A DNA stretch of 18,533 bases from a virus (lineage: Duplodnaviria; Heunggongvirae; Uroviricota; Caudoviricetes): the IMG/VR virus record IMGVR_UViG_2684622582_000009; one strand, written 5' to 3'. A model generated the notes under the pieces. The model saw only the letters and a program-made list of their open reading frames with translations, made no database searches and was not told where the DNA came from. Numbering within the stretch: the stretch's first letter is position 1; every line of letters starts with the position of its first letter. The position numbers and the translations under genes were made by a program. This document shows positions 1,522 through 18,533 of the stretch, in pieces.

Positions 1522-1809
1522 TTACTGTCTCTGGCAATCTTTATCGCGATAACGCCTGAAGTACCCTCTCGCTTCCTCATCCATACCAAGAGCCGAATGA
1601 GTCCGCTTAACTGCCTGTCTTAAATCTCCGAATCTGTCTGTAGTTGCTGGTGGGCGTGCCGCCTTACGGATACATTCAGAGCGTCTGTTTGCTGCATGTT
1701 CACGTTCTTTATCGCCATCTGCCAGCATCATGACTTCTGCCCATCGTGCGGCAGCTCTCCGGTATAGCCCTTTTGACTCCAGCTCTTCAGCTTTCCTGTC
1801 CCTTATCAT
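1522..1809 (-). CDS. PerC-family transcriptional regulator-like protein (95 aa)
   Basis: ORF with a GAGAGG Shine-Dalgarno about 5 nt upstream of the ATG at 1809. The N-terminal segment AEELESKGLYRRAAARWAEVM resembles the conserved A-x-x-LE-x-x-G-[LY]-[WY]-RRAA-x-RW signature I recall for PerC/Pch proteins, which are common on E. coli P4-like islands. Confidence 0.55.
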   Translation of the reverse strand: MIRDRKAEELESKGLYRRAAARWAEVMMLADGDKEREHAANRRSECIRKAARPPATTDRFGDLRQAVKRTHSALGMDEEARGYFRRYRDKDCQRQ

Positions 1810-1838
1810 TTCTGCCTCTCAGATTATATAGATAAGCA

Positions 1839-1966
1839 AAAAGGTGTTGGTTCAGTTGGTTCAGTTGGTTCAATTTGTAAAGAGCGTTGTTTTTATTGTG
1901 TTTTTTCTAAAATATTGAACCAACATCAACTCATTTTGAACCAACAAAAAGTGTCCGTGAACTAAC
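1839..1966. repeat. Iteron array A: three tandem GTTGGTTCA (1846..1872), then inverted copies TGAACCAAC at 1916..1924 and 1937..1945, and a degenerate TGAACTAAC at 1958..1966
   Basis: Read directly. Positions 1839..1884 are the exact reverse complement of 9395..9440. Interpretation as an alpha-binding ori/crr-like site is by analogy with P4 type I iterons. Confidence 0.7.
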
Positions 1967-2296
1967 ACTCTGTCAAATAGTCACTACATATATGAACGGT
2001 GAAGACTAAATTCGCCAGCAAATAGCTTATATAGCACCGCTTTATGCCGCAGTTATGCTGGAACAGTAATCATTTCACAGAACCGCCTAACTACTATATG
2101 GCACCTGCTAAAAAGCACATCAGCCTAGTCAGTTGATCGGTGCATGGATATCCTAACAATTCAACTATATAACGTGATCTCCCATGTCGATCTACTGTCA
2201 TGCAATGATTAACAAACACATAGACACATCTGCTTGGCGCATTGATTAATCACTGATCATCCATCAGGATATGCGAACCACCGTCACCAGGTTAGG

Positions 2297-3382
2297 ATGA
2301 TTCTCAAAAGCCACCTGTATTCAATGCCTTTGATGGGTTTCATCCATAGTTATTTTCTCGTGACTGACATGGAGATTTTGATTTCAAGGTGTGCAAAAAC
2401 TATCGCAGAGTACAATGGAGCTCAAATGACTGTGGCACCAAAAGATCAAAGTTTGAAATCTGTAAGGGTGGGCTTTTACACAAGCTCTGAGAATATTCGC
2501 ACTAGTAACAAGGGGTTAACCGCAGAGGCCTTTAAAAATCTGTATGATCGGTGTTCTAAAGACTTCAAGATGACCCACTATGCAGACTTTGGTGAAAGAG
2601 AACTTAAAATTCATTTTCTAGACATCTCACCCGAGGATGGCTCCTACTTCGGATTCATGTCTCGAAGAAGAAAAAGCGCAACACTGGCATATATTACAGA
2701 TAAAGAGTGGGTGGAAGAGAAAATCCCTCTAGCCGGGGCAAAGACTCTTTCAGAACGTACATACTTTATTTATTATCCTCAGACAGACATTCTAGTATTG
2801 TCTTTAAATCATTTAGGTCCACGCCATAGTGACTTAGCCTTCCTTCTTTTCAACTCCAGTGATCGCGGAGTCCCTGTTTCTTTTGAAGCCATTTGGAAAG
2901 AAGAAAGCATCAAAGAACTACTCGAAACTGGATCCAATCTAAGAAGCTGCGAGATTTCTGTGGCCATCCCAAGAAACTTCAATGCCGCACAGTATCAACT
3001 CGATGGAATGTTCGCGAATCAGATGATTGAGATGATCAGAGGCACCAGTTCAAGCCACCTGACTATTTCGTTACGCGGACATTCTCCATTAAAAAGAAAA
3101 GCAAAGGGATGGCTTGAGGATGACGTTAAAAAAAGCCTTAAGGAGATGCTAGAAAAGTTCCCTGGTGGTGATGGTCGTTTAACTTTTGAGAAAGCAAATG
3201 TTGTTGCTCAGGGCGATAAAAAGAAGAAAAGTCTTGTAGACGAAGTTCTTACGGTAAAGAAGATGGTGCCTATCCAAGCAGATGGGTATCCGACCGATAC
3301 TGACGTTAAAAATGCTATGCTACAAGCAAAGAATGACAACCTTAGGTATCTAACCCAGTACTATTTGGTTAGTCAAACGTAA
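2297..3382 (+). CDS. Hypothetical protein (361 aa as drawn), first gene of an AT-rich two-gene operon; candidate defence/abortive-infection component
   Basis: Long uninterrupted ORF in visibly AT-rich DNA. Possible starts are ATG 2297 (AGGT about 5 nt upstream) or ATG 2426 (GGAG 5 nt upstream), so the true N-terminus is uncertain. The stop lies 12 nt before the next gene's start. I recognise no family motif by eye. Confidence 0.6.
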   Translation: MILKSHLYSMPLMGFIHSYFLVTDMEILISRCAKTIAEYNGAQMTVAPKDQSLKSVRVGFYTSSENIRTSNKGLTAEAFKNLYDRCSKDFKMTHYADFGERELKIHFLDISPEDGSYFGFMSRRRKSATLAYITDKEWVEEKIPLAGAKTLSERTYFIYYPQTDILVLSLNHLGPRHSDLAFLLFNSSDRGVPVSFEAIWKEESIKELLETGSNLRSCEISVAIPRNFNAAQYQLDGMFANQMIEMIRGTSSSHLTISLRGHSPLKRKAKGWLEDDVKKSLKEMLEKFPGGDGRLTFEKANVVAQGDKKKKSLVDEVLTVKKMVPIQADGYPTDTDVKNAMLQAKNDNLRYLTQYYLVSQT

Positions 3383-3394
3383 CAGGAATACATT

Positions 3395-3832
3395 ATGAGT
3401 TCTCGGAAATTGTTTGCTGCCAAGTCATTGTTTGCTCTAGCTATGGCTATTGCTGGTGCCCATTTTTTACACGACCTAGATCACAATGCTGTCATTTCGG
3501 CTGCTGGTGCTCTTTCAACTATTTCTGGAGTTCTCTTTGGTTTTGTTTTGGCATCAGTCACCATGCTAAGTAGCTTTGATAGTTCAAAGGGAATTGTAGG
3601 CGCTCTAAAAAGTAACGGAGTACTAAAAGGCATTATTGAGGGGCTTTTTGATACAGGAACTACGCTGATCACAGCCTGCCTATTAGCAATGATCTCGATG
3701 TTTGCCCCTGTTGTCAGCAATCTGCCTCTGGATTATTATGCCCTGCTACTCGCAGGGGCATATTTGATTATATCAATGATAACTTTTTTCTTTAACTGGA
3801 AATCTTTATCTAAAATAATAAGTTACATATGA
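3395..3832 (+). CDS. Small integral membrane protein (145 aa, about four predicted TM helices); candidate membrane effector
   Basis: AGGAA Shine-Dalgarno 7 nt upstream of the ATG. Four hydrophobic segments of about 20 to 25 residues (LFAAKSLFALAMAIAGAHFL; AVISAAGALSTISGVLFGFVLASVTMLSSF; TTLITACLLAMISMFAPVV; YYALLLAGAYLIISMITFFFNW). Starts 12 nt after the 361-aa ORF. Confidence 0.7.
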   Translation: MSSRKLFAAKSLFALAMAIAGAHFLHDLDHNAVISAAGALSTISGVLFGFVLASVTMLSSFDSSKGIVGALKSNGVLKGIIEGLFDTGTTLITACLLAMISMFAPVVSNLPLDYYALLLAGAYLIISMITFFFNWKSLSKIISYI

Positions 3833-4170
3833 TAAATATTTCAAAATGAGTCCCCCTGCTACGGATAGTCCTTGGCTTAAAAAATACCGTCACCGCTGAA
3901 TACCCACACAGTGCCCCCACCCATTTAGTTGGCATAATGTATTCAACTGATTGAGGAATGGCTCCTCTTTTACTACCAAACGGCCATCGCTGGCGCATTC
4001 ATCCGCTGGTAGTGGAACTTTTTAGCCATCAGCGCCTCCCTAAATCAATTCCTTACATCGCTCAAATTCAACAACCATTGTTGTAATCTTGCTGCTATCA
4101 AGTAACGCCTTTGTATTACGCCGACTTTATCTTGCCAGCAACATACGCCATCCGATAATTTCGATGTTAC

Positions 4171-4554
4171 GCGCGCGTACTTGTCGCAAAATATCAGACA
4201 AAAGCCAGATTCAGAACGTCGTGATAACCACCAGCACAACATGAGAGGTCATGTAACGCGATTTATCACACCAGATACATGTGATTGGTGTACCCGCATA
4301 AAACATCGTCATAGCGCGTCCTGTGCGCATATACGCCGATAATCAACACATCACCACCACTCTGACTTATGTAGAGAACAGTTTTATGGTACTCCCCTCC
4401 ATCGTGCGCGTACTGGTCGGACGTAGTTGCAAAATTTTTTGCAACTGATACCCCTCGCGCGCGTACTTGTCTCGAAATTGGTGTTTTGCTGTGGCAGTGA
4501 TATCAGAAAAATCTTCCTGTTTCACATAAAGCGGATATGCGCGTACTGTAACGG
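4171..4554. repeat. Four same-orientation copies of a GCGCGTACT(T/G)GT-like motif (about 4171..4185, 4404..4418, 4456..4472, 4537..4550) plus a perfect palindrome GTTGCAAAATTTTTTGCAAC (4426..4445)
   Basis: Read directly in the intergenic block between the membrane-protein gene and the signal-peptide gene. Function unknown; could be operator sites, arm-type sites or a packaging-related element. Confidence 0.5.
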
Positions 4555-4664
4555 CCCCATCAACTGGGAGCGGATTTGAAATCCCGACCCAAGCTATGTA
4601 CCAAATGCCATGTCTTGGATATATGATGATTGCCATTCTAAACAACGCTAAAGGGAGGGTTGGT

Positions 4665-5063
4665 GTGAATCAATTGAAGCGATTGGTTGTCTCCGGTTTA
4701 TTATTTGCTTCTTTTGGAGCGAACGCTGAATGCTGGATTATTGGTGATCTGAAAGGACAAGAAGCCTCAAGTTTAGATGGGTATAACTATAAGTTATCAT
4801 CTATACCAGATACATTTCATTTGGTAATAAGTAAAGAGAAGGCGGATCTTATCTTGGCAAAAGATGGTATAGGTGGAGGTATTGATTATTACCCGCTATC
4901 TCCGAATGCCATGATGGGAAGAAGCTATCGAGATGGTCAACTGACGCTTGTCACATGGGCAATCTCAAATGACGGAAAAGTGATCCATACACGAACAATT
5001 AGTCGATCTGATATAGGCTCATTTACAGGCTCATTTGTCGGCAATGTTAAAGGCAAGTGTTAA
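4665..5063 (+). CDS. Small secreted/periplasmic protein (132 aa from GTG 4665) with a Sec-type signal peptide
   Basis: A strong Shine-Dalgarno AAGGGAGGG (4652..4659) sits 5 nt before the in-frame GTG at 4665, whereas the upstream ATG at 4596 has none. The N-terminus NQLKR-LVVSGLLFASFG-ANA|E has the n/h/c regions and AXA site of a signal peptide. The mature part has a Cys near each end. Confidence 0.55.
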   Translation: MNQLKRLVVSGLLFASFGANAECWIIGDLKGQEASSLDGYNYKLSSIPDTFHLVISKEKADLILAKDGIGGGIDYYPLSPNAMMGRSYRDGQLTLVTWAISNDGKVIHTRTISRSDIGSFTGSFVGNVKGKC

Positions 5064-5124
5064 TGTTCATAACTATTTGAAAAAATACTAATTACTATTA
5101 TAACCAACCATCCATGGCCATCTG

Positions 5125-7230
5125 TTATTGAGCTTCCTTTTGCGATGCTTGTGCTGCTGTGGTCAGTGATTGTGTGACCGTACTGATCGCTCTGTCATAT
5201 GCTGTGCTACCTTTTGGCGTATTTGCCAGACGTAACAAGGCATTTCGTATAACAGGGCTTTCGTATGCCTTCGCTGCTCCGCCTACGGAACCAGCAGCAG
5301 GAACAACAAACGCAGCCGTTTTTAGCATCCCCGCTAATACTGCTGCGTTTATGATGCCACCACCAACTAACAATCCATAAAGCTGCTGACCATTTAAGTT
5401 TTGAACGTTCGCTTTTGCCGCGTGTCTTGTATCGTTGAGGTATTTAATAACGCCGTCCAGTTCCTTTCCATGTATGCCTTTAAAGAAAGTTGCTGATTGC
5501 TTCCTGTTCCGGTGTAACGCATTAATAAACTTCTCAACACTGATATTTCCAGACGGATCAGTCGCCTTATCTACAGCATTCTGAACTATGGCTGCTCGTG
5601 CGTTTTGCCTACCATTGTCATCCAGAAGCCTGTAAAGCTGAGAACGTTCTGATGGGCTTTGGCTAAAAACAAGTTTTGTTACATCCTCAGGCGTGGCCTT
5701 GCCGCTGGCTATTGCCTTTTGAACGCGCGTTCTTCCCATCATGTCATTGAATTTAGACCATGAGCGATCAACCCTTGCCATATTAATAGCTTCGTCTGCT
5801 CCAAGATTTTTGGCTACGGCTTTTTTCATATCCGCCGTATATGCCTTGTAGATAATATCGCTGGCTTTCTGGAGCGTATCTTTATCAACAGTGTCAGATG
5901 ACGCCATAAATCGCTTTCGAAGATCGGTTCTGTTTTCCCTCGCCAGACGCAGGTCATTTGGTCCGCTGGTGATATCGTCTTTAAATTGCTGCAAGACTTT
6001 TACCGCGGCTCTATCCTGAGATTTGCCCGGGCGGCTTAACACGGCAATCTGATTGTCGATAGCTTTTACCGTGTTTGAGAGATCGACAGGGGTATCCCCC
6101 ATAGCGTCAATTATGCGGTTATATCGCTTTCCTGCTGCCTCAATGAATTTTTGTTGCCCTTTAGTCGCAGATTCATAAAGCTGTTTATCAGAAATGCCAC
6201 CCAGACCATCGCTAAATGTTCTGACTAAATTTTCTCGTGCTTGTTGTTGATTCAGCCGATTCTTACCGGTTCCAAAAAAAGGAACTCTTTCGCCTAATGT
6301 CTGAGCCTGACTCTGCATAAAGGTTTTATCTTTCAGCATGTCACTGGTCATTAACGGCAGATTTCTTTCCGATGCAAAGTCGACAGCAGCCTTTGCTTCA
6401 GGCGATATATCACCACGAACAGCCCTCGAAACCGCACTCGCTGTATTTTCCAGCCCCTTACCAATACCACCAATGCCAGCAGAAATTACCGTTTGTAACG
6501 GATCAATATCTTCTCCACCAGCGAGGCTGGTGGCTCCCTGTAGTGCTAAATCTGTAGCTGCTGATTTCCCTATGGCCCCCAGCACCGTTCCGGCCCTGCC
6601 CGCTGGTGTAAACGCCAGCGCATTAGCCAGAAACGATGCCACGTCTTGCGGCGATAAACCCGGCTTGTTCAGAGCATAATCACCGGATGGCAGGGAAACG
6701 ATAGTGTTACCCTTCTCATCCTGCCTTAATTTCGCTCCCATGCTCTGAAGAATCTTTTCCTGAGATGCGTCAGAGCCGAAAAGTTGAGACCATCGAGCTT
6801 TTAGAGCATCCATGCTGAGTGAGGTTAACTCTGGGGCAAGGTCGACATTTTGCAGTCTCTCCATCTCTGGAGTCATTCGGCTTTCGCCTGTTATAGCATC
6901 GCGCATCGCAGCCCCAAGACTGGCTCCCTGTTCTGCTGAACGCTCAAGCCCCTCTCTTTGCTGAGTAGCTAACTTTGCATACCCTGACGCAAGAGAATTA
7001 TCAGATGATGTATGTTGAATATTTTGAGTTGCTGATTGGGATCGGTCTATTTCATTCGTTGATGGTAGTGGATAGGCAGCATAAAAAGCCTGCTTAGCCT
7101 GCTCTACACTTTCTCCGGCTTGCGGGGCAACGACTTCATTGAAGTATTGCTCCTGAGCCTGCGCTTTTTGTTCTGGTGCTAACGCCTGATACTGTGGAGA
7201 GGCGATAACATCTTTCCATGCTTTAGCCAT
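5125..7230 (-). CDS. Large hypothetical protein (701 aa), A/Q-rich with a C-terminal glycine-zipper hydrophobic hairpin
   Basis: ORF with a GGGGTGA Shine-Dalgarno. Its ATG overlaps the upstream gene's stop (TAATG at 7228..7232), indicating translational coupling. The C-terminal segment LYGLLVGGGIINAAVLAGMLKTAAFVVPAAGSVGGAAKAY is about 40 hydrophobic, Gly-rich residues. No Walker A or other catalytic motif is recognisable. Confidence 0.75.
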   Translation of the reverse strand: MAKAWKDVIASPQYQALAPEQKAQAQEQYFNEVVAPQAGESVEQAKQAFYAAYPLPSTNEIDRSQSATQNIQHTSSDNSLASGYAKLATQQREGLERSAEQGASLGAAMRDAITGESRMTPEMERLQNVDLAPELTSLSMDALKARWSQLFGSDASQEKILQSMGAKLRQDEKGNTIVSLPSGDYALNKPGLSPQDVASFLANALAFTPAGRAGTVLGAIGKSAATDLALQGATSLAGGEDIDPLQTVISAGIGGIGKGLENTASAVSRAVRGDISPEAKAAVDFASERNLPLMTSDMLKDKTFMQSQAQTLGERVPFFGTGKNRLNQQQARENLVRTFSDGLGGISDKQLYESATKGQQKFIEAAGKRYNRIIDAMGDTPVDLSNTVKAIDNQIAVLSRPGKSQDRAAVKVLQQFKDDITSGPNDLRLARENRTDLRKRFMASSDTVDKDTLQKASDIIYKAYTADMKKAVAKNLGADEAINMARVDRSWSKFNDMMGRTRVQKAIASGKATPEDVTKLVFSQSPSERSQLYRLLDDNGRQNARAAIVQNAVDKATDPSGNISVEKFINALHRNRKQSATFFKGIHGKELDGVIKYLNDTRHAAKANVQNLNGQQLYGLLVGGGIINAAVLAGMLKTAAFVVPAAGSVGGAAKAYESPVIRNALLRLANTPKGSTAYDRAISTVTQSLTTAAQASQKEAQ

Positions 7231-8696
7231 TAATCACCCCATAGTGAAGAAAAGTTACTGCTGGCTGCTGGCTGTGATACCTGCTCAGATTGCGGCAATG
7301 TCTGCGACGAAGAAGCAGTTCCTCTGTCAACTGCTGAAATAACCCGCAAAGCATCATAAGTTCGACCAGAAGCAGCTTTCAGCGAATTGAACTGGTTTTC
7401 CATCTTCCGGCGCTTGGTATCAATGGTTTTTGTGGAGTCGCCAGGCTGAGGGAAATACATTTGATAATATTTTGACATTTCAGCAGGTGCGATAGCTGCC
7501 CCTGTTTCCTGACGGAGTATTGCCATTATTGCGTCATTAGCATTAACAACGTATTGCTGCTCTGCTGGGCTGAGCGTTAAGTTAGCCAGCGTCCCATTAC
7601 CCAAAGCATTATTAATGATCGCCACTCGCTGTGGGCTAAGCTGGTCTTTCAGTGTATCTATTGAATCAAGAGCATCCCTAACCCTGTATGCAAATCCAGC
7701 AGCTTTTTTAGCCCCTTCTGGCGACTTTTCCATGATCTTTTGGGCTGTTGGCAAAGCTATTGGACGAAACCCATCTCCAGATATTGGCTGGTTTAGTTTT
7801 CCCTGCTCTTCACTTCCGTCTGTGTAGTATTTTGTGACAGTGCCATCATCGTTTTCTCTAACACTCATTAATTTTTTGGCGTTTGTATTAATTCCAGCCG
7901 CTGCCGCAAATGCCGCCGCCCCCTCTGGATCCGCCTTTAACATTTGCGCGTACTGATTGTAATTCTGCATTGCGGCTGTTGGTGCATATGCTGACGTTAA
8001 CGCATTTGCTCGGCTAATATCCTGCCCTCTCGCCTGAAGTGCTTCTCCGGCCTGATTGCTGCGGATTGTCTCTGCCAACTTGCCACGCTCAATATCCCGA
8101 CCTTCCATTTGATCTTTGATATCGAAATACTTCTCATGACCGAGAGAAAACAGCGCCAGATTACCTGCGAAATGCTGGAAGCCCTGCGGGTCATTAACCT
8201 GCATTTCAGCAATAGTTTCTGGAGGGATACCTAAACGACGCATCTCCTGCTCATTATCCATCATGAACCTGCCAAATGCGCCCTGACCAAGCGATGAGGC
8301 TACCTGTGCTTTGAGCGCCAGATTGCCATAATCATCCCTTTGAGCATCATCGACATAACTCATCCCTTTACGGACTTCCTCAAACTCTTCTGGGAATGCT
8401 GTAATAAGATTACGCATCTGCTCCCTGTCACCGGACGCATAAGCATCTGCATAACCTTTCTGGAATGCTGCTTTACGCTCCTGCTGTTGCTGCTGCTTAT
8501 AAATATCAGCAACTCCAGCCAGACCACGAAGACCTGTCAGAGCAACGTTATTTGCACCTGAGCGAGCCAGTTCATTGTTTTCGCGGATCAGACCAAGCGT
8601 TGCGTTAATGTCGCTTGCTTTTGGCGCATTCTCATTTTGCGTACCGATGCCAGCCAGAAAACCACCAGAATTAATACCCTGTTGCCACGTAGCCAT
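7230..8696 (-). CDS. Large hypothetical protein (488 aa from ATG 8696; 492 aa if GTG 8708 is used), A/Q-rich, low complexity
   Basis: Long ORF translationally coupled to the 701-aa gene. The track start at 8708 is a GTG overlapping the upstream small gene; the ATG at 8696 (MATWQQG...) lies 4 nt after that gene's stop. Contains a QQQQQ run and many Ala/Gln. Confidence 0.75.
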   Translation of the reverse strand: MATWQQGINSGGFLAGIGTQNENAPKASDINATLGLIRENNELARSGANNVALTGLRGLAGVADIYKQQQQQERKAAFQKGYADAYASGDREQMRNLITAFPEEFEEVRKGMSYVDDAQRDDYGNLALKAQVASSLGQGAFGRFMMDNEQEMRRLGIPPETIAEMQVNDPQGFQHFAGNLALFSLGHEKYFDIKDQMEGRDIERGKLAETIRSNQAGEALQARGQDISRANALTSAYAPTAAMQNYNQYAQMLKADPEGAAAFAAAAGINTNAKKLMSVRENDDGTVTKYYTDGSEEQGKLNQPISGDGFRPIALPTAQKIMEKSPEGAKKAAGFAYRVRDALDSIDTLKDQLSPQRVAIINNALGNGTLANLTLSPAEQQYVVNANDAIMAILRQETGAAIAPAEMSKYYQMYFPQPGDSTKTIDTKRRKMENQFNSLKAASGRTYDALRVISAVDRGTASSSQTLPQSEQVSQPAASSNFSSLWGD

Positions 8697-8700
8697 AAAT

Positions 8701-8874
8701 TTACCCACGTCCAGTTAAAGTGTAAGCCAGCGCCTTATCCATTAATCCCCGAGCAATTTCGTGGATCGTTGGCGCAACTCCTACCTCTGATTTTTTACGC
8801 TGCTCCTCCTGAATTTTCTTTATCGCTTCCATTTGCTTCTCACTTATCAATACTGGCTTTACTGAAATAGCCAT
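8701..8874 (-). CDS. Small protein (57 aa), possible ribbon-helix-helix DNA-binding protein; first gene of the LexA-box operon
   Basis: Not in the ORF track because it is under 60 aa. The ATG at 8874 follows a strong Shine-Dalgarno AAGGGGG. Translation: MAISVKPVLISEKQMEAIKKIQEEQRKKSEVGVAPTIHEIARGLMDKALAYTLTGRG. A beta-strand-like VKPVLIS followed by two helical segments is compatible with an RHH fold, judged by eye only. Confidence 0.5.
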   Translation of the reverse strand: MAISVKPVLISEKQMEAIKKIQEEQRKKSEVGVAPTIHEIARGLMDKALAYTLTGRG

Positions 8875-15569: not shown

Positions 15570-16001
15570 TTAGGCGGCGTTAAACGCGTCCGGGTAGAGT
15601 TTCAGAATGTCGGCAATTTCCTGCTGAGAAAGTCCGTTGTGATCATTTATGTTCGCAAGATGGTTAACATGAGTGATCACTTTCAGAACATCACCACGGC
15701 AGGAGAAACGGTAGCGAAGGTGTGTTCCGATACCATCAGGATTCTTTTCGTCGATACGCTCCAGAGTGATTCCAAGCTGGCGTTCTAACTCTGTTGCATA
15801 GTTACGACCAGAAGACAGACGGCAGTAGCGAAGAATGTCATTTTCTGTCCATCCCTCTATACCAGTACGCAGCATATAGACTCGGGCACGATGCTTTTTC
15901 GGTGTGCGCTTTGGTGCTTGAAGGGATTTTGTAAGGGGCGTAATATCAGATACGCGAATATCTGAATTAGCCGCCTGTAATGGGCGGTTTTTCTTTTCCA
16001 T
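15570..16001 (-). CDS. Hypothetical protein (143 aa), coupled to alpA
   Basis: ATGA overlap with the alpA stop at 15999..16003. Basic N-terminus; no family recognised. Confidence 0.6.
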   Translation of the reverse strand: MEKKNRPLQAANSDIRVSDITPLTKSLQAPKRTPKKHRARVYMLRTGIEGWTENDILRYCRLSSGRNYATELERQLGITLERIDEKNPDGIGTHLRYRFSCRGDVLKVITHVNHLANINDHNGLSQQEIADILKLYPDAFNAA

Positions 16002-16204
16002 CAGGCCACCTTCCCGCGGCGTTCTGCCAGCCAGTTGTGAATCTCAACCGCATCAAACGCAGTTATTTTTTCTCCCAGCTTTACCGGACGTGGTAGTGAA
16101 CCGTTTCTTACTTTACGGTCGATGGTGGATACACTAACGCCCAGCAATTCAGCCAGGCGAAAGCGTCTGATATAGCCTTTTGTAGGGATAGTGTCGATGT
16201 TCAT
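16001..16204 (-). CDS. alpA: AlpA-family (phage Vis-like) transcriptional regulator (67 aa)
   Basis: The segment RLAELLGVSVSTIDRKVRNGSLPRPVKLGEKITAFDAVEIHNWL fits the AlpA helix-turn-helix pattern (L-x-E-x-x-G-x-S-x-STI-x-R ... P-x-P-V-K-L-G ... W) as I recall it. Its position just downstream of the integrase region is typical for P4-like and PICI elements. Confidence 0.8.
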   Translation of the reverse strand: MNIDTIPTKGYIRRFRLAELLGVSVSTIDRKVRNGSLPRPVKLGEKITAFDAVEIHNWLAERRGKVA

Positions 16205-16270
16205 GATTCCCGTAACCTCTTAGCGATAGTTGTTGCTTCGTTACGAGAAATCTAGCTGTATAGATATACA

Positions 16271-16299
16271 ATGAAAAGGTACTGTAATTTTGCAGTACC
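16271..16299 (-). terminator. Candidate intrinsic terminator after the 316-aa gene (palindrome GGTACTGTAATTTTGCAGTACC followed by a T-run on the minus strand)
   Basis: A near-perfect 7-bp-arm inverted repeat at 16278..16299 lies 12 nt downstream of the 316-aa stop. On the transcribed (minus) strand it is followed by TTTTCATT. It could alternatively be an operator. Confidence 0.35.
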
Positions 16300-16310
16300 T
16301 CTATAGTAAG

Positions 16311-17261
16311 TTAACTATCCACTTTGCCATTTGCCGCAGATCGTAGATGTTTAAGAATTACATCTTCATTAGTTATCATAAGTGGTGGAACTTCGTCTAA
16401 ATGACGAACAAGACAGTCACGCCACTTCTCAGGGCTTATTTCTTTCCTTTCTCCCCTGCATTCATTTGGATACTTACTAAGTATATAAATTGCAGATTTT
16501 AATAGTTTCTCCCTATTGACTGCGTACCGTTCGGCACGTTTATTAACTTTTAGCGTATTTATATCATTGGATAACTTGTTTGCGGATGGTTTGTGCATGG
16601 GTCTGTCATAAATATATTTTCCTCCATTTATAAGAAGATTGTATTCATAGTCAGTTATATACATTTTGTTTCGGCTTATTTCATACCAGCCGTCAATATA
16701 AAAAGCTCCGATTTCATAATTATTCGATTTGCTAAACTCGTCACATCTCGGAGGCATCAGTTCGCATACAGAGATCTCCCAATCATCCCATTCTGATAGC
16801 TCCCGCTCATCGTTATCTATGAACGCAGGCGGAATTGCTAATAGACCGCTCCATCTTTCGATATCTCTTTCATCCTTCCCAACATTGTATCGCTCTATAA
16901 CTGAGAAATGTTCTGATTTGTATGAAAACCTCATAAAATACATATAGTTATCGCTATTTTTATAATCAAGTGATGATAAGCCATATGATTCGAGATTATC
17001 TGCCTTATTGCTCAGATCAAGGAGATAATTCTCATGTGCTGCTTTTGTATCTATATGAAAAATACTATCTGTTTCAACTTTAAGTAATTCTGGCTCGGCA
17101 TCTTCATTTTTTGGGTAATGGTAAAACAATTCAATAGGTGGAATTTTTATACATATTTCTAAAACCCCAATTGCTGCATAGTGTATTAAATCGGATACTT
17201 CACATCCGGCCAGTTTGGCTGCTTTATCCAAAGAATAATATTTATGCGCAGGTAATTTCAT
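16311..17261 (-). CDS. Hypothetical protein (316 aa), AT-rich, with a possible N-terminal HTH; sits between int and alpA
   Basis: Its ATG at 17261 lies 18 nt after the integrase stop, with a GAGAGGAAAG Shine-Dalgarno that spans the int TGA. The N-terminus YSLDKAAKLAGCEVSDLIHYAAIG looks like a helix-turn-helix. The DNA is visibly more AT-rich than its neighbours (not computed). Confidence 0.65.
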   Translation of the reverse strand: MKLPAHKYYSLDKAAKLAGCEVSDLIHYAAIGVLEICIKIPPIELFYHYPKNEDAEPELLKVETDSIFHIDTKAAHENYLLDLSNKADNLESYGLSSLDYKNSDNYMYFMRFSYKSEHFSVIERYNVGKDERDIERWSGLLAIPPAFIDNDERELSEWDDWEISVCELMPPRCDEFSKSNNYEIGAFYIDGWYEISRNKMYITDYEYNLLINGGKYIYDRPMHKPSANKLSNDINTLKVNKRAERYAVNREKLLKSAIYILSKYPNECRGERKEISPEKWRDCLVRHLDEVPPLMITNEDVILKHLRSAANGKVDS

Positions 17262-17279
17262 TATGAATCTTTCCTCTCA

Positions 17280-18533
17280 TCATGCTCTGATTGGCGTTAC
17301 GTTGTAGTCTTTTCCGCTTTCCAGTGCCACCAGCAGATCTGCCCACTGTGCCAGTGCTGCTTTACGCTCATCAAAATACTGATGACGGTTATAAATCCCC
17401 TCTACGCCCTTAATGCGATGATTGAGGCATCGTTCCGCCACGACAGGATCAACACCCAATGCTGCTAAATGAGTACGTGCGGTGCGTCGGAAGTCGTGAA
17501 TCGTGAAATTAGGCACATCCGGCATTTCGGCGCGAACCTTAGCCAGTGCTACGGGTAAAGTGCTTTCCTGAATATGTGGGATCATTCTGTTTTGCATCTT
17601 CCTGGCCGGAAGCACCCATGCGCTATTACATGAAAAGGTGTGTAGCTCTCTCAACCATTCAGCGGCTGGGGAAGGTAGAGGTATATCAATAGGGTCTCCG
17701 TTTTTGCTGCGTTCTTCCGGCAAATGCCATACCGCACCATCTAAATCAAACTCTTCCCATCGTGCGGCGCATAACTCCATCTTACGAACGCATAGTGCCA
17801 GCAATAGTTTAAATGTCAGTTCGTTTTGGCGGCTGAATCCTTTTGCGGTGCGCATAGCCTCGAATAGCCTGATAAGCTCATCGCGAGTTAGCCAACGGTC
17901 GCGGGAAACCTCTTTACCACCAGCATCAGATACTTCAAACGCTGAACAAGGGTTTATCTCCAGAGCGTGGCGTTTTATCCCATAGTCAAAGATACGGCGT
18001 GTCCAGCGTAATACATCTGTTGCTATCGTTGGTGCTCCTCGGTCAACGATACCTTTCAACATGTCGTCAATGTGGCGTGGCTTAACGTCCTCTACCTTCA
18101 TATGCCCAATGCAGGGGTTAATATCCTTATCAATTCTCCGGCGAAGGATATCGGGATGTTTCCATCTCGGAAGTATCTGGCGCTCGAAGTATTCGGAGGC
18201 CAGATCTGAAACACGCATGGCGTTTTTCTCAGCCTCCATTTTTGCCAGTGCTTCAGCTTTTCGTTCCTGTTTCTCTGCTGCTACGTCATAGCCAAGAGCA
18301 ACTCTGGCTGACAGCTCTTTTGCTGTTTCTCTGGCTTTTGATAGTGACAGTTCGGAGTAAGAGCCTATAACCATAGCCCGCTGCTTTCCTGCGAGCTTAT
18401 AGCGGAATCGCCAGAACGGGACTGTGTAGTTTTTGGGGTAGCAAATATAAAGGCCGTTGCCGTCTGCCTTGCCATCAAATCTGTCTCCCGCCTTTATCCA
18501 TGCGCGGATCTGCATATCTGTGAGTTTTGGCAT
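17280..18533 (-). CDS. int: P4-type tyrosine integrase (417 aa; complete, start codon is the last three bases of the window)
   Basis: The C-terminal catalytic region has HDFRRT (His-x-x-Arg) and IYNRHQY (candidate Tyr nucleophile), characteristic of tyrosine recombinases. The N-terminus (GLYICYPKNYTVPFWRFRYKLAGKQRAMVIGSY) resembles the P4-type integrase arm-binding domain, from recall. Confidence 0.9.
   Translation of the reverse strand: MPKLTDMQIRAWIKAGDRFDGKADGNGLYICYPKNYTVPFWRFRYKLAGKQRAMVIGSYSELSLSKARETAKELSARVALGYDVAAEKQERKAEALAKMEAEKNAMRVSDLASEYFERQILPRWKHPDILRRRIDKDINPCIGHMKVEDVKPRHIDDMLKGIVDRGAPTIATDVLRWTRRIFDYGIKRHALEINPCSAFEVSDAGGKEVSRDRWLTRDELIRLFEAMRTAKGFSRQNELTFKLLLALCVRKMELCAARWEEFDLDGAVWHLPEERSKNGDPIDIPLPSPAAEWLRELHTFSCNSAWVLPARKMQNRMIPHIQESTLPVALAKVRAEMPDVPNFTIHDFRRTARTHLAALGVDPVVAERCLNHRIKGVEGIYNRHQYFDERKAALAQWADLLVALESGKDYNVTPIRA

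Follow-up and report, generated by a model that had tools for sequence, protein, structure and literature searches.

The gene between integrase and alpA in an EcCIMP1-like phage satellite: a member of a large family of exchangeable alleles with a possible role in satellite induction or excision

Introduction

The PICMI satellites of Vibrionaceae carry integrase-overlapping or integrase-contiguous genes (iolg and icg), the former overlapping the int stop codon by 1, 4 or 13 nt while the latter are contiguous with int (Barcia-Cruz et al. 2024, PMC10803314). In PICMI115, iolg was expressed constitutively together with int, and once it had been deleted the helper no longer induced excision; the deletion mutant was complemented only by int and iolg together, and a polar effect on int is possible (PMC10803314). 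[quoted passage not shown] For well-studied PICIs such as EcCICFT073, a need for a gene in the slot between int and alpA has not been reported (PMC6092414). How helper phages are detected and turn on alpA in PICI and PICMI satellites, and whether a repressor exists in the Gram-negative PICIs, is an acknowledged open question (PMC6092414, PMC10803314).

Until now the gene between int and alpA has been described only as unrelated families without assigned function in Vibrio PICMIs, with 13 IOLG/ICG family representatives (PMC10803314). Here we place the gene occupying this slot in an E. coli satellite, a 316-aa CDS that we call gene X, in one very large family.

Results

The window, i.e. the whole stretch of 18,533 nt that was analysed, holds an EcCIMP1-like PICI satellite of ~17 kb integrated beside yicC; the element is found at this site in E. 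coli SA186 (NZ_CP022730). It shares with EcCIMP1 int, alpA, an AntA-type antirepressor, a TOPRIM/DUF927 primase, P22-type DNA-transfer (injectosome) proteins and a PerC-family regulator. EcCIMP1, however, resides at tRNA-Thr, and its int-alpA slot contains the small ORF_002, about a tenth of the size of UvrB and mis-annotated as such, instead of an X-family gene of ~300 aa. The PICMIs, on the other hand, are 6-kb fis elements of Vibrio.

Gene X (16311..17261, minus strand), which belongs to an uncharacterised family located immediately downstream of int, lies between its upstream partner, a 417-aa tyrosine integrase specific for the site beside yicC (17280..18533; Pfam Arm-DNA-bind_3, Phage_int_M and Phage_integrase), and its downstream neighbour alpA (67 aa, 16001..16204; Pfam Phage_AlpA), all three genes being on the minus strand. 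An earlier note on this DNA had placed the start of the ORF 18 nt past the int stop, and the sequence agrees: exactly 18 nt (17279-17262) lie between the TGA at 17282-17280 and the ATG at 17261, which is the first start codon downstream of an in-frame stop. The ribosome-binding site was thought to span the int stop codon, but within this junction (17262..17282, minus strand) the Shine–Dalgarno sequence, GAGAGG/GAGG at about 17278-17273, actually begins 2 nt past it. With a gap in place of an overlap, the window copy is 'icg'-like. A consensus promoter and terminator scan called no minus-strand sigma-70-like promoter in the int-X junction and neither a promoter nor a terminator on that strand in the region as a whole. 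The marked AT-richness of X relative to int and alpA was also seen correctly, with a GC content of 0.358 (GC3 0.29) compared to 0.494 (0.47) for int, 0.50 (0.50) for alpA and a window mean of 0.463; it is a family-wide property, GC being 0.37-0.40 in six further alleles from other genera. Values of dN/dS between 0.18 and 0.46 against close alleles indicate that X is a protein-coding gene under purifying selection.

The end of X is separated from alpA by 106 nt. Directly after the stop codon, a stem-loop (AGGTACTG-8 nt-CAGTACCT at 16300-16277) followed by a TTTTC tract forms a terminator-like structure (16273..16302, minus strand) which separates int-X from alpA. The 116-nt intergenic RNA has a fold energy of −30.8 kcal/mol (z = −4.2), and the hairpin is kept in relatives with compensatory changes (GGTACTG/CAGTACC to GGCACAG/CTGTGCC), a good U-tract following it in the E. 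coli alleles only. Of the terminator claimed earlier, the hairpin is well founded, while the consensus terminator scan is silent, having missed it because the extended stem takes up part of the U-tract. The spacer further contains a perfect palindrome, TGTATA-TC-TATACA (16257..16270, minus strand), read from the sequence as a candidate operator; the dyads found at the corresponding position of other X alleles are not the same. The palindrome TGTATAnnTATACA occurs once in 41 kb, with 1.75 occurrences expected at up to 2 mismatches, and a single copy at a count not above chance provides no evidence for the operator hypothesis. Next to alpA lies a leader inverted repeat, (C)TCGTAAC...AGAGG-GTTACGGG(A) (16208..16248, minus strand), which would sequester the alpA Shine–Dalgarno sequence.

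The N-terminal helix-turn-helix that had been proposed for X appears in the AlphaFold model as a winged helix-turn-helix of the Xis/MerR/BldC type (aa 8-39; 17145..17240, minus strand). The predicted domain thus has the winged-helix fold of the MerR/Xis superfamily, shared by excisionases, AlpA-type proteins and MerR regulators; we compared it to lambda-type excisionases, Pukovnik Xis (4j2n), RdfS (8dgl), BldC (6amk) and MerR N-domains. In contrast to these proteins, X has about 260 extra residues, comprising a hypervariable beta-rich central domain (about aa 105-215; 16617..16949, minus strand) and a conserved helical C-terminal domain (aa 235-312; 16326..16559, minus strand), it matches no sequence family and it does not co-vary with the integrase. 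The C-terminal domain, with the motif AERHAxNREKLxKSAIYLLSKYPDECRGxxKEISPEKW...PPLxITNEDVILKHLRxA, is 60-82% identical between alleles that are otherwise unalignable, and contains most of the invariant columns of the family.

Database searches assigned no function to X. There was no Pfam match at E ≤ 1, no NCBIfam match and no match in PADLOC-DB 2.0 at E ≤ 10, and only two weak matches in PHROGs, both to families without assigned function. The same applies to phrog_7144, matched by 18 of 70 distant relatives, none of which has a Pfam match. For the beta-rich middle domain of the AlphaFold model no structural match was found. No nuclease, NTPase, TIR, Sir2, transmembrane or toxin-like domain was detected in X and no invariant catalytic residues in the family alignments. 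A peroxiredoxin match in the variable region, the sole return of a profile search with PDB sequences, was spurious. Searching the literature for the RefSeq accessions of X proteins returned nothing. Among 50,697 phage genomes, tblastn with X and with a distant relative found no match, which argues that X is not a phage gene.

The X family comprises at least 649 clusters at the 50% identity level and spans Enterobacterales, Aeromonadales and Vibrionales. In all 25 distinct elements that were looked up through X or its family, the order is int, X, alpA on one strand, with Bro-N in place of alpA in two of them. At family level the same gene is thus conserved at this position throughout the related elements, which belong to 15 genera (Escherichia, Salmonella, Enterobacter, Rosenbergiella, Kosakonia, Intestinirhabdus, Pectobacterium, Tatumella, Pantoea, Klebsiella, Dickeya, Serratia, Aeromonas, Zobellella and Grimontia). 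By integration site they fall into four types (yicC, the ssrA/smpB region, fis or a location inside a prophage late region), their integrases can be as little as 27-28% identical, and their replication modules differ (DUF927, D5_N/DUF5906 or VapE).

The gap between int and X, 18 nt in the window, measures 19 nt in the Zobellella element and 3 nt in that of Grimontia. In fis-integrated IMG/VR satellites the int end is visible for 22 X-family ORFs, of which 13 overlap int by ATGA or GTGA and one by 1 nt, the Shine–Dalgarno sequence of the overlapping genes being inside int. Together, the short gap in the window and the many ATGA overlaps support the earlier suggestion that X is co-transcribed with int and, more generally, that it is expressed as a unit with int. 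X is accordingly a member of the iolg/icg positional class: like iolg and icg, it has its place between int and alpA in the same orientation as both, is tightly coupled to int, presumably with constitutive expression, and exists in many mutually unalignable variants with no known function. Those family members that overlap int by ATGA in the fis-integrated satellites are bona fide iolg genes, and the Zobellella element carrying an X-family gene is flanked by the exact 17-bp repeat of PICMIs. The class is nevertheless a positional one with at least one unrelated family (DUF6387), and to the one tested protein, the PICMI115 IOLG (type d; VCHA34P115_150119 of GCA_943739175.1), X is likened by position, homology being a possibility. 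Searches of viral and metagenome contigs seeded with the PICMI115 AlpA yielded no PICMI115-like contig, only AlpA relatives of ~46% identity, with no int-X context.

That the int-to-alpA interval is a variable slot, as the earlier note had it, is clear both from the E. coli alleles and from non-homologous occupants in fis satellites. The E. coli X alleles of 316, 321 and 281 aa are only 23-36% identical to each other while the integrases flanking them are 93-99% and the AlpAs 97-99% identical to those of the window, a single AlpA (WP_001090781.1) accompanying all three. Even integrases of about 99% identity carry X alleles that cannot be aligned in their DNA-proximal two-thirds. Between X and int, synonymous divergence (dS) disagrees in either direction, demonstrating cassette exchange, with one X allele adjoining integrases separated by a dS of 1.29. 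The exchanged cassette reaches up to the alpA leader, whose inverted repeat is its conserved right-hand boundary, and it therefore includes the presumed alpA promoter region. In fis satellites with integrases 92-97% identical, the slot is filled by X, by DUF6387 or by a 216-aa family, and the slots seen without a gene all adjoin integrases that are more distant (at 41-61% identity to the others). The DUF6387 (PF19924) slot genes were rejected as homologues of X (hhalign probability 0.8% against the X-family profile), as was YfjH, encoded between intA and alpA of CP4-57 in E. coli K-12 (BLASTP E = 0.73, hhalign 0.3%), whose gene is on the opposite strand, unlike X. None of the 25 elements has a recognisable defence system in the slot. 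Gene X is hence a swappable module which is neither an Int-specific excisionase nor a recognisable defence system.

Discussion

Our best guess is that X, co-expressed with int, binds DNA and confers specificity on, or licenses, induction or excision of the satellite. It would be a life-cycle gene of the integration/induction module and not ordinary cargo, licensing alpA induction and/or excision for certain helper phages only; we favour this reading tentatively. X would be made together with the integrase, by co-transcription in the window element and by translational coupling in many relatives, and would consequently be present in the quiescent, integrated state. The conserved winged helix-turn-helix might bind element DNA, either in the X-alpA control region or at an att arm, whereas the conserved helical C-terminal domain may contact a conserved partner or mediate self-association. 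The hypervariable beta-rich middle would be the specificity part and would recognise an external factor, a helper-phage product being the most plausible candidate: that this part diverges while Int and AlpA remain nearly identical argues for a target outside the element. An allele swap would then alter which phage the satellite answers to, whether X acts as an activator or as a repressor. The fixed position, the coupling to int, the predicted N-domain fold and the lack of a catalytic or toxin-like signature or a PADLOC match are in line with a life-cycle role, while AT-richness, a terminator of its own and horizontal cassette exchange would also be expected of a moron or defence gene. Since the slot can be held by non-homologous families or be empty, and EcCICFT073 is not reported to need such a gene, an indispensable role is hard to argue.

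The serious rival is a defence or exclusion function, which we consider possible if on balance unlikely. X would be an anti-phage moron in a recombination hotspot just downstream of int, expressed from the constitutive int transcript, with the middle domain sensing an invading phage and the C-terminal domain as the effector or signalling part. Such a role would fit a GC content that, in every allele examined, is far below that of the flanks (0.36 compared to about 0.49), the predicted terminator, the hypervariability and the cassette-like exchange between diverged backbones, as well as the finding that fis satellites whose integrases are nearly identical can have, in place of X, genes of comparable size from unrelated families. 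Defence genes are known to be carried by satellites, and EcCIMP1 contributes to superinfection immunity through a gene that was not identified (PMC11773190). The 321-aa allele also has a match to the PADLOC candidate PDC-S31, albeit a very weak one (E = 0.002, 15.6 bits). However, PADLOC, Pfam, NCBIfam and PHROGs propose no function for X, and neither a domain typical of effectors (nuclease, NTPase, TIR, Sir2, transmembrane or toxin-like) nor invariant catalytic residues were found. Unlike typical hotspots, the slot of the yicC elements never holds a known system and is occupied in every element checked, and cargo genes are not usually coupled to int translationally by ATGA. The defence gene of PICMI115 (UP2) is located elsewhere, and it is excision that the slot gene affects (PMC10803314). 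Of the two possibilities raised in the earlier note, a defence or exclusion factor is thus weakened by the silence of PADLOC and the absence of a known system from the slot, and a regulator, of integration as proposed there or of induction, fits somewhat better.

A regulator could also be a master repressor. SaPI Stl combines a helix-turn-helix with a variable middle and a conserved C-terminus, a three-part architecture that X parallels. X would bind an operator at the alpA promoter through its helix-turn-helix and dimerise through its C-terminus, silencing the island until a helper-phage protein bound to the variable domain relieves the repression; we regard this as rather improbable. Like SaPI Stl and the Rpr proteins of Gram-positive PICIs, X has a predicted helix-turn-helix and a putative sensing part that differs strongly from allele to allele; its gene lies beside int and is presumably expressed in the quiescent island, and its allelic diversity could set helper specificity. 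It ends close upstream of alpA, allele-specific spacer dyads travel with the cassette (TGTATAtcTATACA here, others in the 321- and 281-aa alleles), and Gram-negative PICIs are so far without any known repressor (PMC6092414). On the other hand, X has no sequence similarity to Stl or cI-type repressors and no detected structural homology to Stl or Rpr. The gene for Stl and the operon under its repression are transcribed divergently, but int, X and alpA all point the same way, with a hairpin before alpA. The palindrome is present in a single copy, not above chance, and is not kept in Kosakonia, where the X allele belongs to one group with that of the window; X is also missing from many AlpA-type satellites. 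Nor does the PICMI115 iolg deletion suggest a repressor role, since, if iolg is analogous, it blocks excision instead of inducing it (PMC10803314).

That X is the recombination directionality factor of the integrase, an enlarged Xis binding the att arms and bending the DNA for Int-mediated excision, would agree with its adjacency to or overlap and co-expression with int and with the need for iolg in excision of PICMI115 (PMC10803314), but is very improbable, given that such a factor should co-evolve with Int and att while the occupant of the slot varies at 92-97% integrase identity, alleles are unalignable next to E. coli integrases of about 99% identity and X-int dS values are discordant (a single allele beside integrases at dS 1.29), that AlpA, itself of the Xis type, is present and suffices to trigger excision in related systems (PMC6092414, PMC10803314), and that X, about four times the classical size at 316 aa, matches no Pfam excisionase family (HTH_17, Phage_AlpA, Excis-type), its resemblance to directionality factors being one of fold in the first ~50 residues with no homology found at sequence or family level.

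The analysis shows that the slot gene of E. coli satellites belongs to a single family of this size, with a predicted Xis/MerR-type helix-turn-helix and a conserved C-terminal domain, whose alleles have been exchanged among satellites that are otherwise almost identical. It would be useful to learn either that X is a helper-specificity or licensing factor or that it is a single-gene defence of a new kind; if X is neither, it is an ordinary conserved hypothetical. More broadly, and with little confidence, we suggest that the X family, perhaps even the whole iolg/icg slot, represents the missing helper-phage sensors of gammaproteobacterial AlpA-type satellites: through its swappable middle domain each would recognise a particular helper protein, and the helix-turn-helix at the alpA control region or an att site would then license induction and excision. 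If so, the slot allele would determine which phage mobilises the island, and X would match SaPI Stl in function while being assembled from unrelated parts.

Results

The gene considered here, X, is a 316-aa ORF at 16311-17261 on the minus strand. On the same strand it is preceded by a tyrosine integrase gene (int, 417 aa, 17280-18533; Pfam Arm-DNA-bind_3, Phage_int_M and Phage_integrase) and followed by alpA (16001-16204; Pfam Phage_AlpA). The int stop codon, a TGA at 17282-17280, and the ATG of X at 17261 are separated by 18 nt (TGAGAGGAAAGATTCATA), and a promoter scan found no sigma-70-like promoter on the minus strand of this junction. X has a GC content of 0.358 (GC3 0.29), whereas int has 0.494 and alpA 0.50; values of 0.37-0.40 were obtained for every other X allele examined. 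The coordinates, gap and base composition that an earlier note had read from the sequence are all borne out, except that the ribosome-binding site, GAGAGG, does not span the int stop codon as proposed: its first base lies 2 nt past it.

E. coli SA186 and a number of further strains contain a locus with 100% identity to the sequence. It is part there of an island of ~17 kb, placed between yicC and yicG, that carries int, X, alpA, a 143-aa ORF, an AntA antirepressor, DUF4222, an Ash-family protein, a TOPRIM-DUF927 primase, a P22-type injectosome translocase (PF16928) next to a 701-aa ORF, Bro-N and a PerC-family regulator. EcCIMP1, a PICI mobilised by the P22-like phage Kapi1, has the same gene set (PMC11773190), and the island fits the 'integration / Bro / replication / late' zoning known from Gram-negative PICIs, a group that counts PICIs integrated at yicC among its reference members (PMC10111431 and its preprint). 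The translocase homologue (492 aa, E = 1.6e-83), labelled 'phage DNA ejection protein' in RefSeq, is an unusual load for a satellite and suggests that the helper is P22-like, as with EcCIMP1/Kapi1; it lies within 5125-8708 (minus strand) together with the abutting 701-aa ORF, for which Pfam gave no match. The far end of the island has another block of low GC (0.38-0.42; window positions 1800-5100), with ORFs of 361 aa (2297-3382), 145 aa (3395-3832) and 155 aa (4596-5063) on the plus strand, opposite to the rest of the element, none with a match in Pfam or PADLOC. The first two are separated by 12 nt and look like a two-gene cassette, and the block is a more conventional site for accessory or defence cargo than the int-to-alpA slot.

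The spacer between X and alpA comprises 106 nt and folds at −30.8 kcal/mol (z = −4.2), far better than shuffled controls. The X stop codon is followed directly by a stem-loop (arms AGGTACTG and CAGTACCT around 8 nt of loop, then TTTTC), so that the hairpin previously noted at this place is present, although a simple terminator scan did not call it because the extended stem takes up part of the U-tract. A palindrome, TGTATAtcTATACA (16257-16270), lies inside the presumed alpA promoter region, where other alleles have different dyads; it is single-copy with a frequency not above chance and is therefore not counted as evidence. Immediately upstream of alpA we observed an inverted repeat, (C)CCGTAAC followed after 16-27 nt by GTTACGGG (16208-16248, minus strand), whose 3′ arm adjoins the alpA Shine–Dalgarno sequence (AGAGG/GGAG), with the start codon 3-7 nt further. 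This repeat is kept in yicC-type elements of Escherichia, Salmonella, Rosenbergiella, Kosakonia, Intestinirhabdus, Klebsiella, Dickeya and Serratia with a loop variable in both length and sequence; the sole changes in the arms are transitions preserving G•U pairs on the sense strand, and double compensatory changes are absent among the elements compared. It looks like a leader hairpin that could gate alpA translation.

X has no match in Pfam, NCBIfam or PADLOC even at permissive thresholds, and only two weak ones in PHROGs, both to families without a known function. A word-indexed search returned 61 relatives, all from Enterobacterales and all 'hypothetical', while an HMM search of 1.84 billion cluster representatives gave 649 clusters at E <= 1e-3, of which 164 reach E <= 1e-10; almost all are 270-340 aa in length. 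Among 70 distant members none has a Pfam domain and 18 match phrog_7144, likewise without known function; 50,697 phage genomes yielded no match. BLAST and alignments revealed a three-part pattern of conservation: an N-terminal motif, LPxxxYxxLxRAAxLLxCxxxDLxHW, conserved across the family; a middle region that is ~30% identical or unalignable between alleles; and a C-terminal portion of ~75-120 residues (AERHAxNREKLxKSAIYLLSKYPDECRG..KEISPEKW...PPLxITNEDVILKHLR) that is 60-82% identical even where the rest of the proteins cannot be aligned. An AlphaFold2 model (50-sequence input, mean pLDDT 78, pTM 0.62) predicts a winged HTH at residues 8-39 (pLDDT 93-95), a long helix at 72-93, a beta-rich domain at ~105-215 (pLDDT 85-94) and a helical C-terminal domain at 235-310. 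The N-terminal HTH suspected from the sequence is thereby confirmed at the level of the predicted fold, which is of the Xis/MerR (excisionase) type; beyond it no known relative was found. In the family alignments the middle domain has no invariant column of a catalytic type, whether acidic, histidine or other. By the tests run, X is not a member of the excisionase, MerR, defence, DUF6387 or YfjH families. Residues 183-266 of the E. coli 321-aa allele (L002:4113-5078) weakly match the PADLOC candidate PDC-S31 (E = 0.002, 15.6 bits) while the 316-aa allele of the window does not; this sole defence-related signal is probably noise.

In every element examined, that is, those found through X or its family, int, X and alpA follow each other in this order on a single strand, except that two have Bro-N where alpA would be. 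Eleven distinct yicC elements of E. coli carry three alleles, of 316 aa (SA186, FP4, M9682-C1), 321 aa and 281 aa. X also occurs in Salmonella, Rosenbergiella, Kosakonia, Intestinirhabdus, Pectobacterium, Tatumella, Klebsiella, Dickeya and Serratia, where yicC stands beside int in the gene lists or the integrase is 85-90% identical to that of the window. Further settings include a Pantoea element (integrase 27% identical), an Aeromonas element in the smpB (ssrA) region, a Zobellella element downstream of fis flanked by the exact 17-bp PICMI repeat AATACGGCATGAACTGA (int-X gap 19 nt), and a Grimontia element with a VapE-type replication protein (gap 3 nt). In Enterobacter (L008/L009, GCA_046518385.1) the integrase ahead of the family gene has only 28% identity to that of the window and is located directly behind terminase, portal and Mu-F-like genes, an arrangement suggestive of a helper-embedded PICI like those in PMC10111431. 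The family gene is followed here by Bro-N and not by an annotated alpA. A 274-aa Serratia member (L020/L021, yicC site) combines the family N-terminus and middle with another C-terminal domain (...ALIYQLIQLAF...ISPYNIRNWI); a 47-aa ORF and Bro-N replace alpA behind it, and the leader CCCGTAAC...GTTACGGG is retained. The type of C-terminal domain may co-vary with the downstream regulator.

The alpA leader is present in 155 of 5,426 complete E. coli genomes. The 316-aa allele accompanies it in 41; 75 match only the 3′ 310 nt, at 76% identity (321-aa allele in both genomes inspected), and 39 match only the last ~40 nt before alpA (281-aa allele in all six inspected). Between the window and strain FP4, dS is 0.04 for int, 0.06 for alpA and 0.33 for X (0.47 in the middle domain), with an X dN/dS of 0.18; against M9682-C1 the values are 1.29, 0.87 and 0.03, with a dN/dS of 0.46. 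X alleles are therefore exchanged as cassettes from one backbone to another and are subject to purifying selection. On the left, the breakpoint is at the 3′ end of int; on the right, it falls either within the sequence coding for the conserved C-terminus or just ahead of the conserved alpA leader, whose inverted repeat forms the right-hand boundary of the exchanged cassette. Other fis-integrated satellites have DUF6387 (PF19924), a 216-aa protein or nothing in the ATGA-coupled slot, and integrases 92-97% identical are paired with X, DUF6387 or the 216-aa family. The interval is variable, as the earlier note had it, both through allele swapping and through these other families. DUF6387 proteins of ~260-290 aa overlap int by ATGA in many fis-integrated IMG/VR satellites (e.g. 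L066, L062, L092, L108, L123, L124, L130 and L138), which gives DUF6387 a well-defined role in the genome, that of an iolg-class gene (see below); as a relative of X it was rejected (hhalign probability 0.8%).

Discussion

In the satellite PICMI115 of Vibrio chagasii, int and alpA enclose an 'integrase-overlapping gene' (iolg), which overlaps int by ATGA and is expressed constitutively together with it; when iolg is deleted, helper-induced excision, packaging and transfer are lost, the complementation in that study having been made only with int and iolg together (PMC10803314). Among PICMI subfamilies iolg is found in 21 of 35, an int-contiguous gene (icg) in four and neither in three, and these genes form 13 'families', none with a known function (PMC10803314). 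When 135 IMG/VR stretches with the fis-end att repeat were scanned using X-family HMMs, 24 ORFs matched, the int end being visible for 22. Thirteen overlap the int stop codon by 4 nt (12 ATGA, one GTGA) with their Shine–Dalgarno sequence within int, one overlaps by 1 nt, and eight lie ~90 nt downstream. The X family therefore includes bona fide iolg/icg genes, and the X of the window, which has the same position as these genes, is an 'icg'-type member. It belongs to a known positional kind, and by analogy it may work most like the PICMI genes.

X is co-expressed with Int, its C-terminal domain is conserved, its middle domain is hypervariable and non-enzymatic, its position before the alpA control region is invariant and cassette exchange covers that region. 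We tentatively favor X as a life-cycle factor. Its conserved parts would bind element DNA and/or Int or AlpA, its variable domain would recognize a partner that is external and itself variable, a helper-phage product being the most plausible candidate, and in this way X would license either alpA induction or excision. Such licensing is consistent with the helper-dependent, SOS-independent expression of alpA and with the finding of neither a repressor nor a sensor in Gram-negative PICIs (PMC6092414), and also with the requirement of the PICMI slot gene for excision (PMC10803314).

Cassette exchange is compatible with a swappable specificity module and with accessory cargo alike, and it is possible, if somewhat unlikely, that X is a single-gene defence or exclusion protein. 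The AT-richness, terminator and horizontal exchange of X and the heterogeneous occupants of the slot would fit such a protein, while X lacks any defence signature, the slot is coupled to int by ATGA and it is filled in every yicC element examined. What stands of the earlier interpretation is the variable slot and co-expression with int, and not free cargo or a defence signature. We consider it improbable that X is an Stl-like repressor. That it is a classical recombination directionality factor (RDF) is most improbable of all, an integrase-specific RDF being strongly opposed by the exchange of cassettes between backbones.

What is new is that the E. coli X is united with a very large Gammaproteobacteria-wide family containing true iolg genes, that the family has an architecture of a predicted Xis/MerR-type N-domain and a conserved C-domain, and that there is quantitative evidence for allele shuffling. 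X offers a good, testable approach to the question of how satellites of this kind select a helper, with at least two explanations live.
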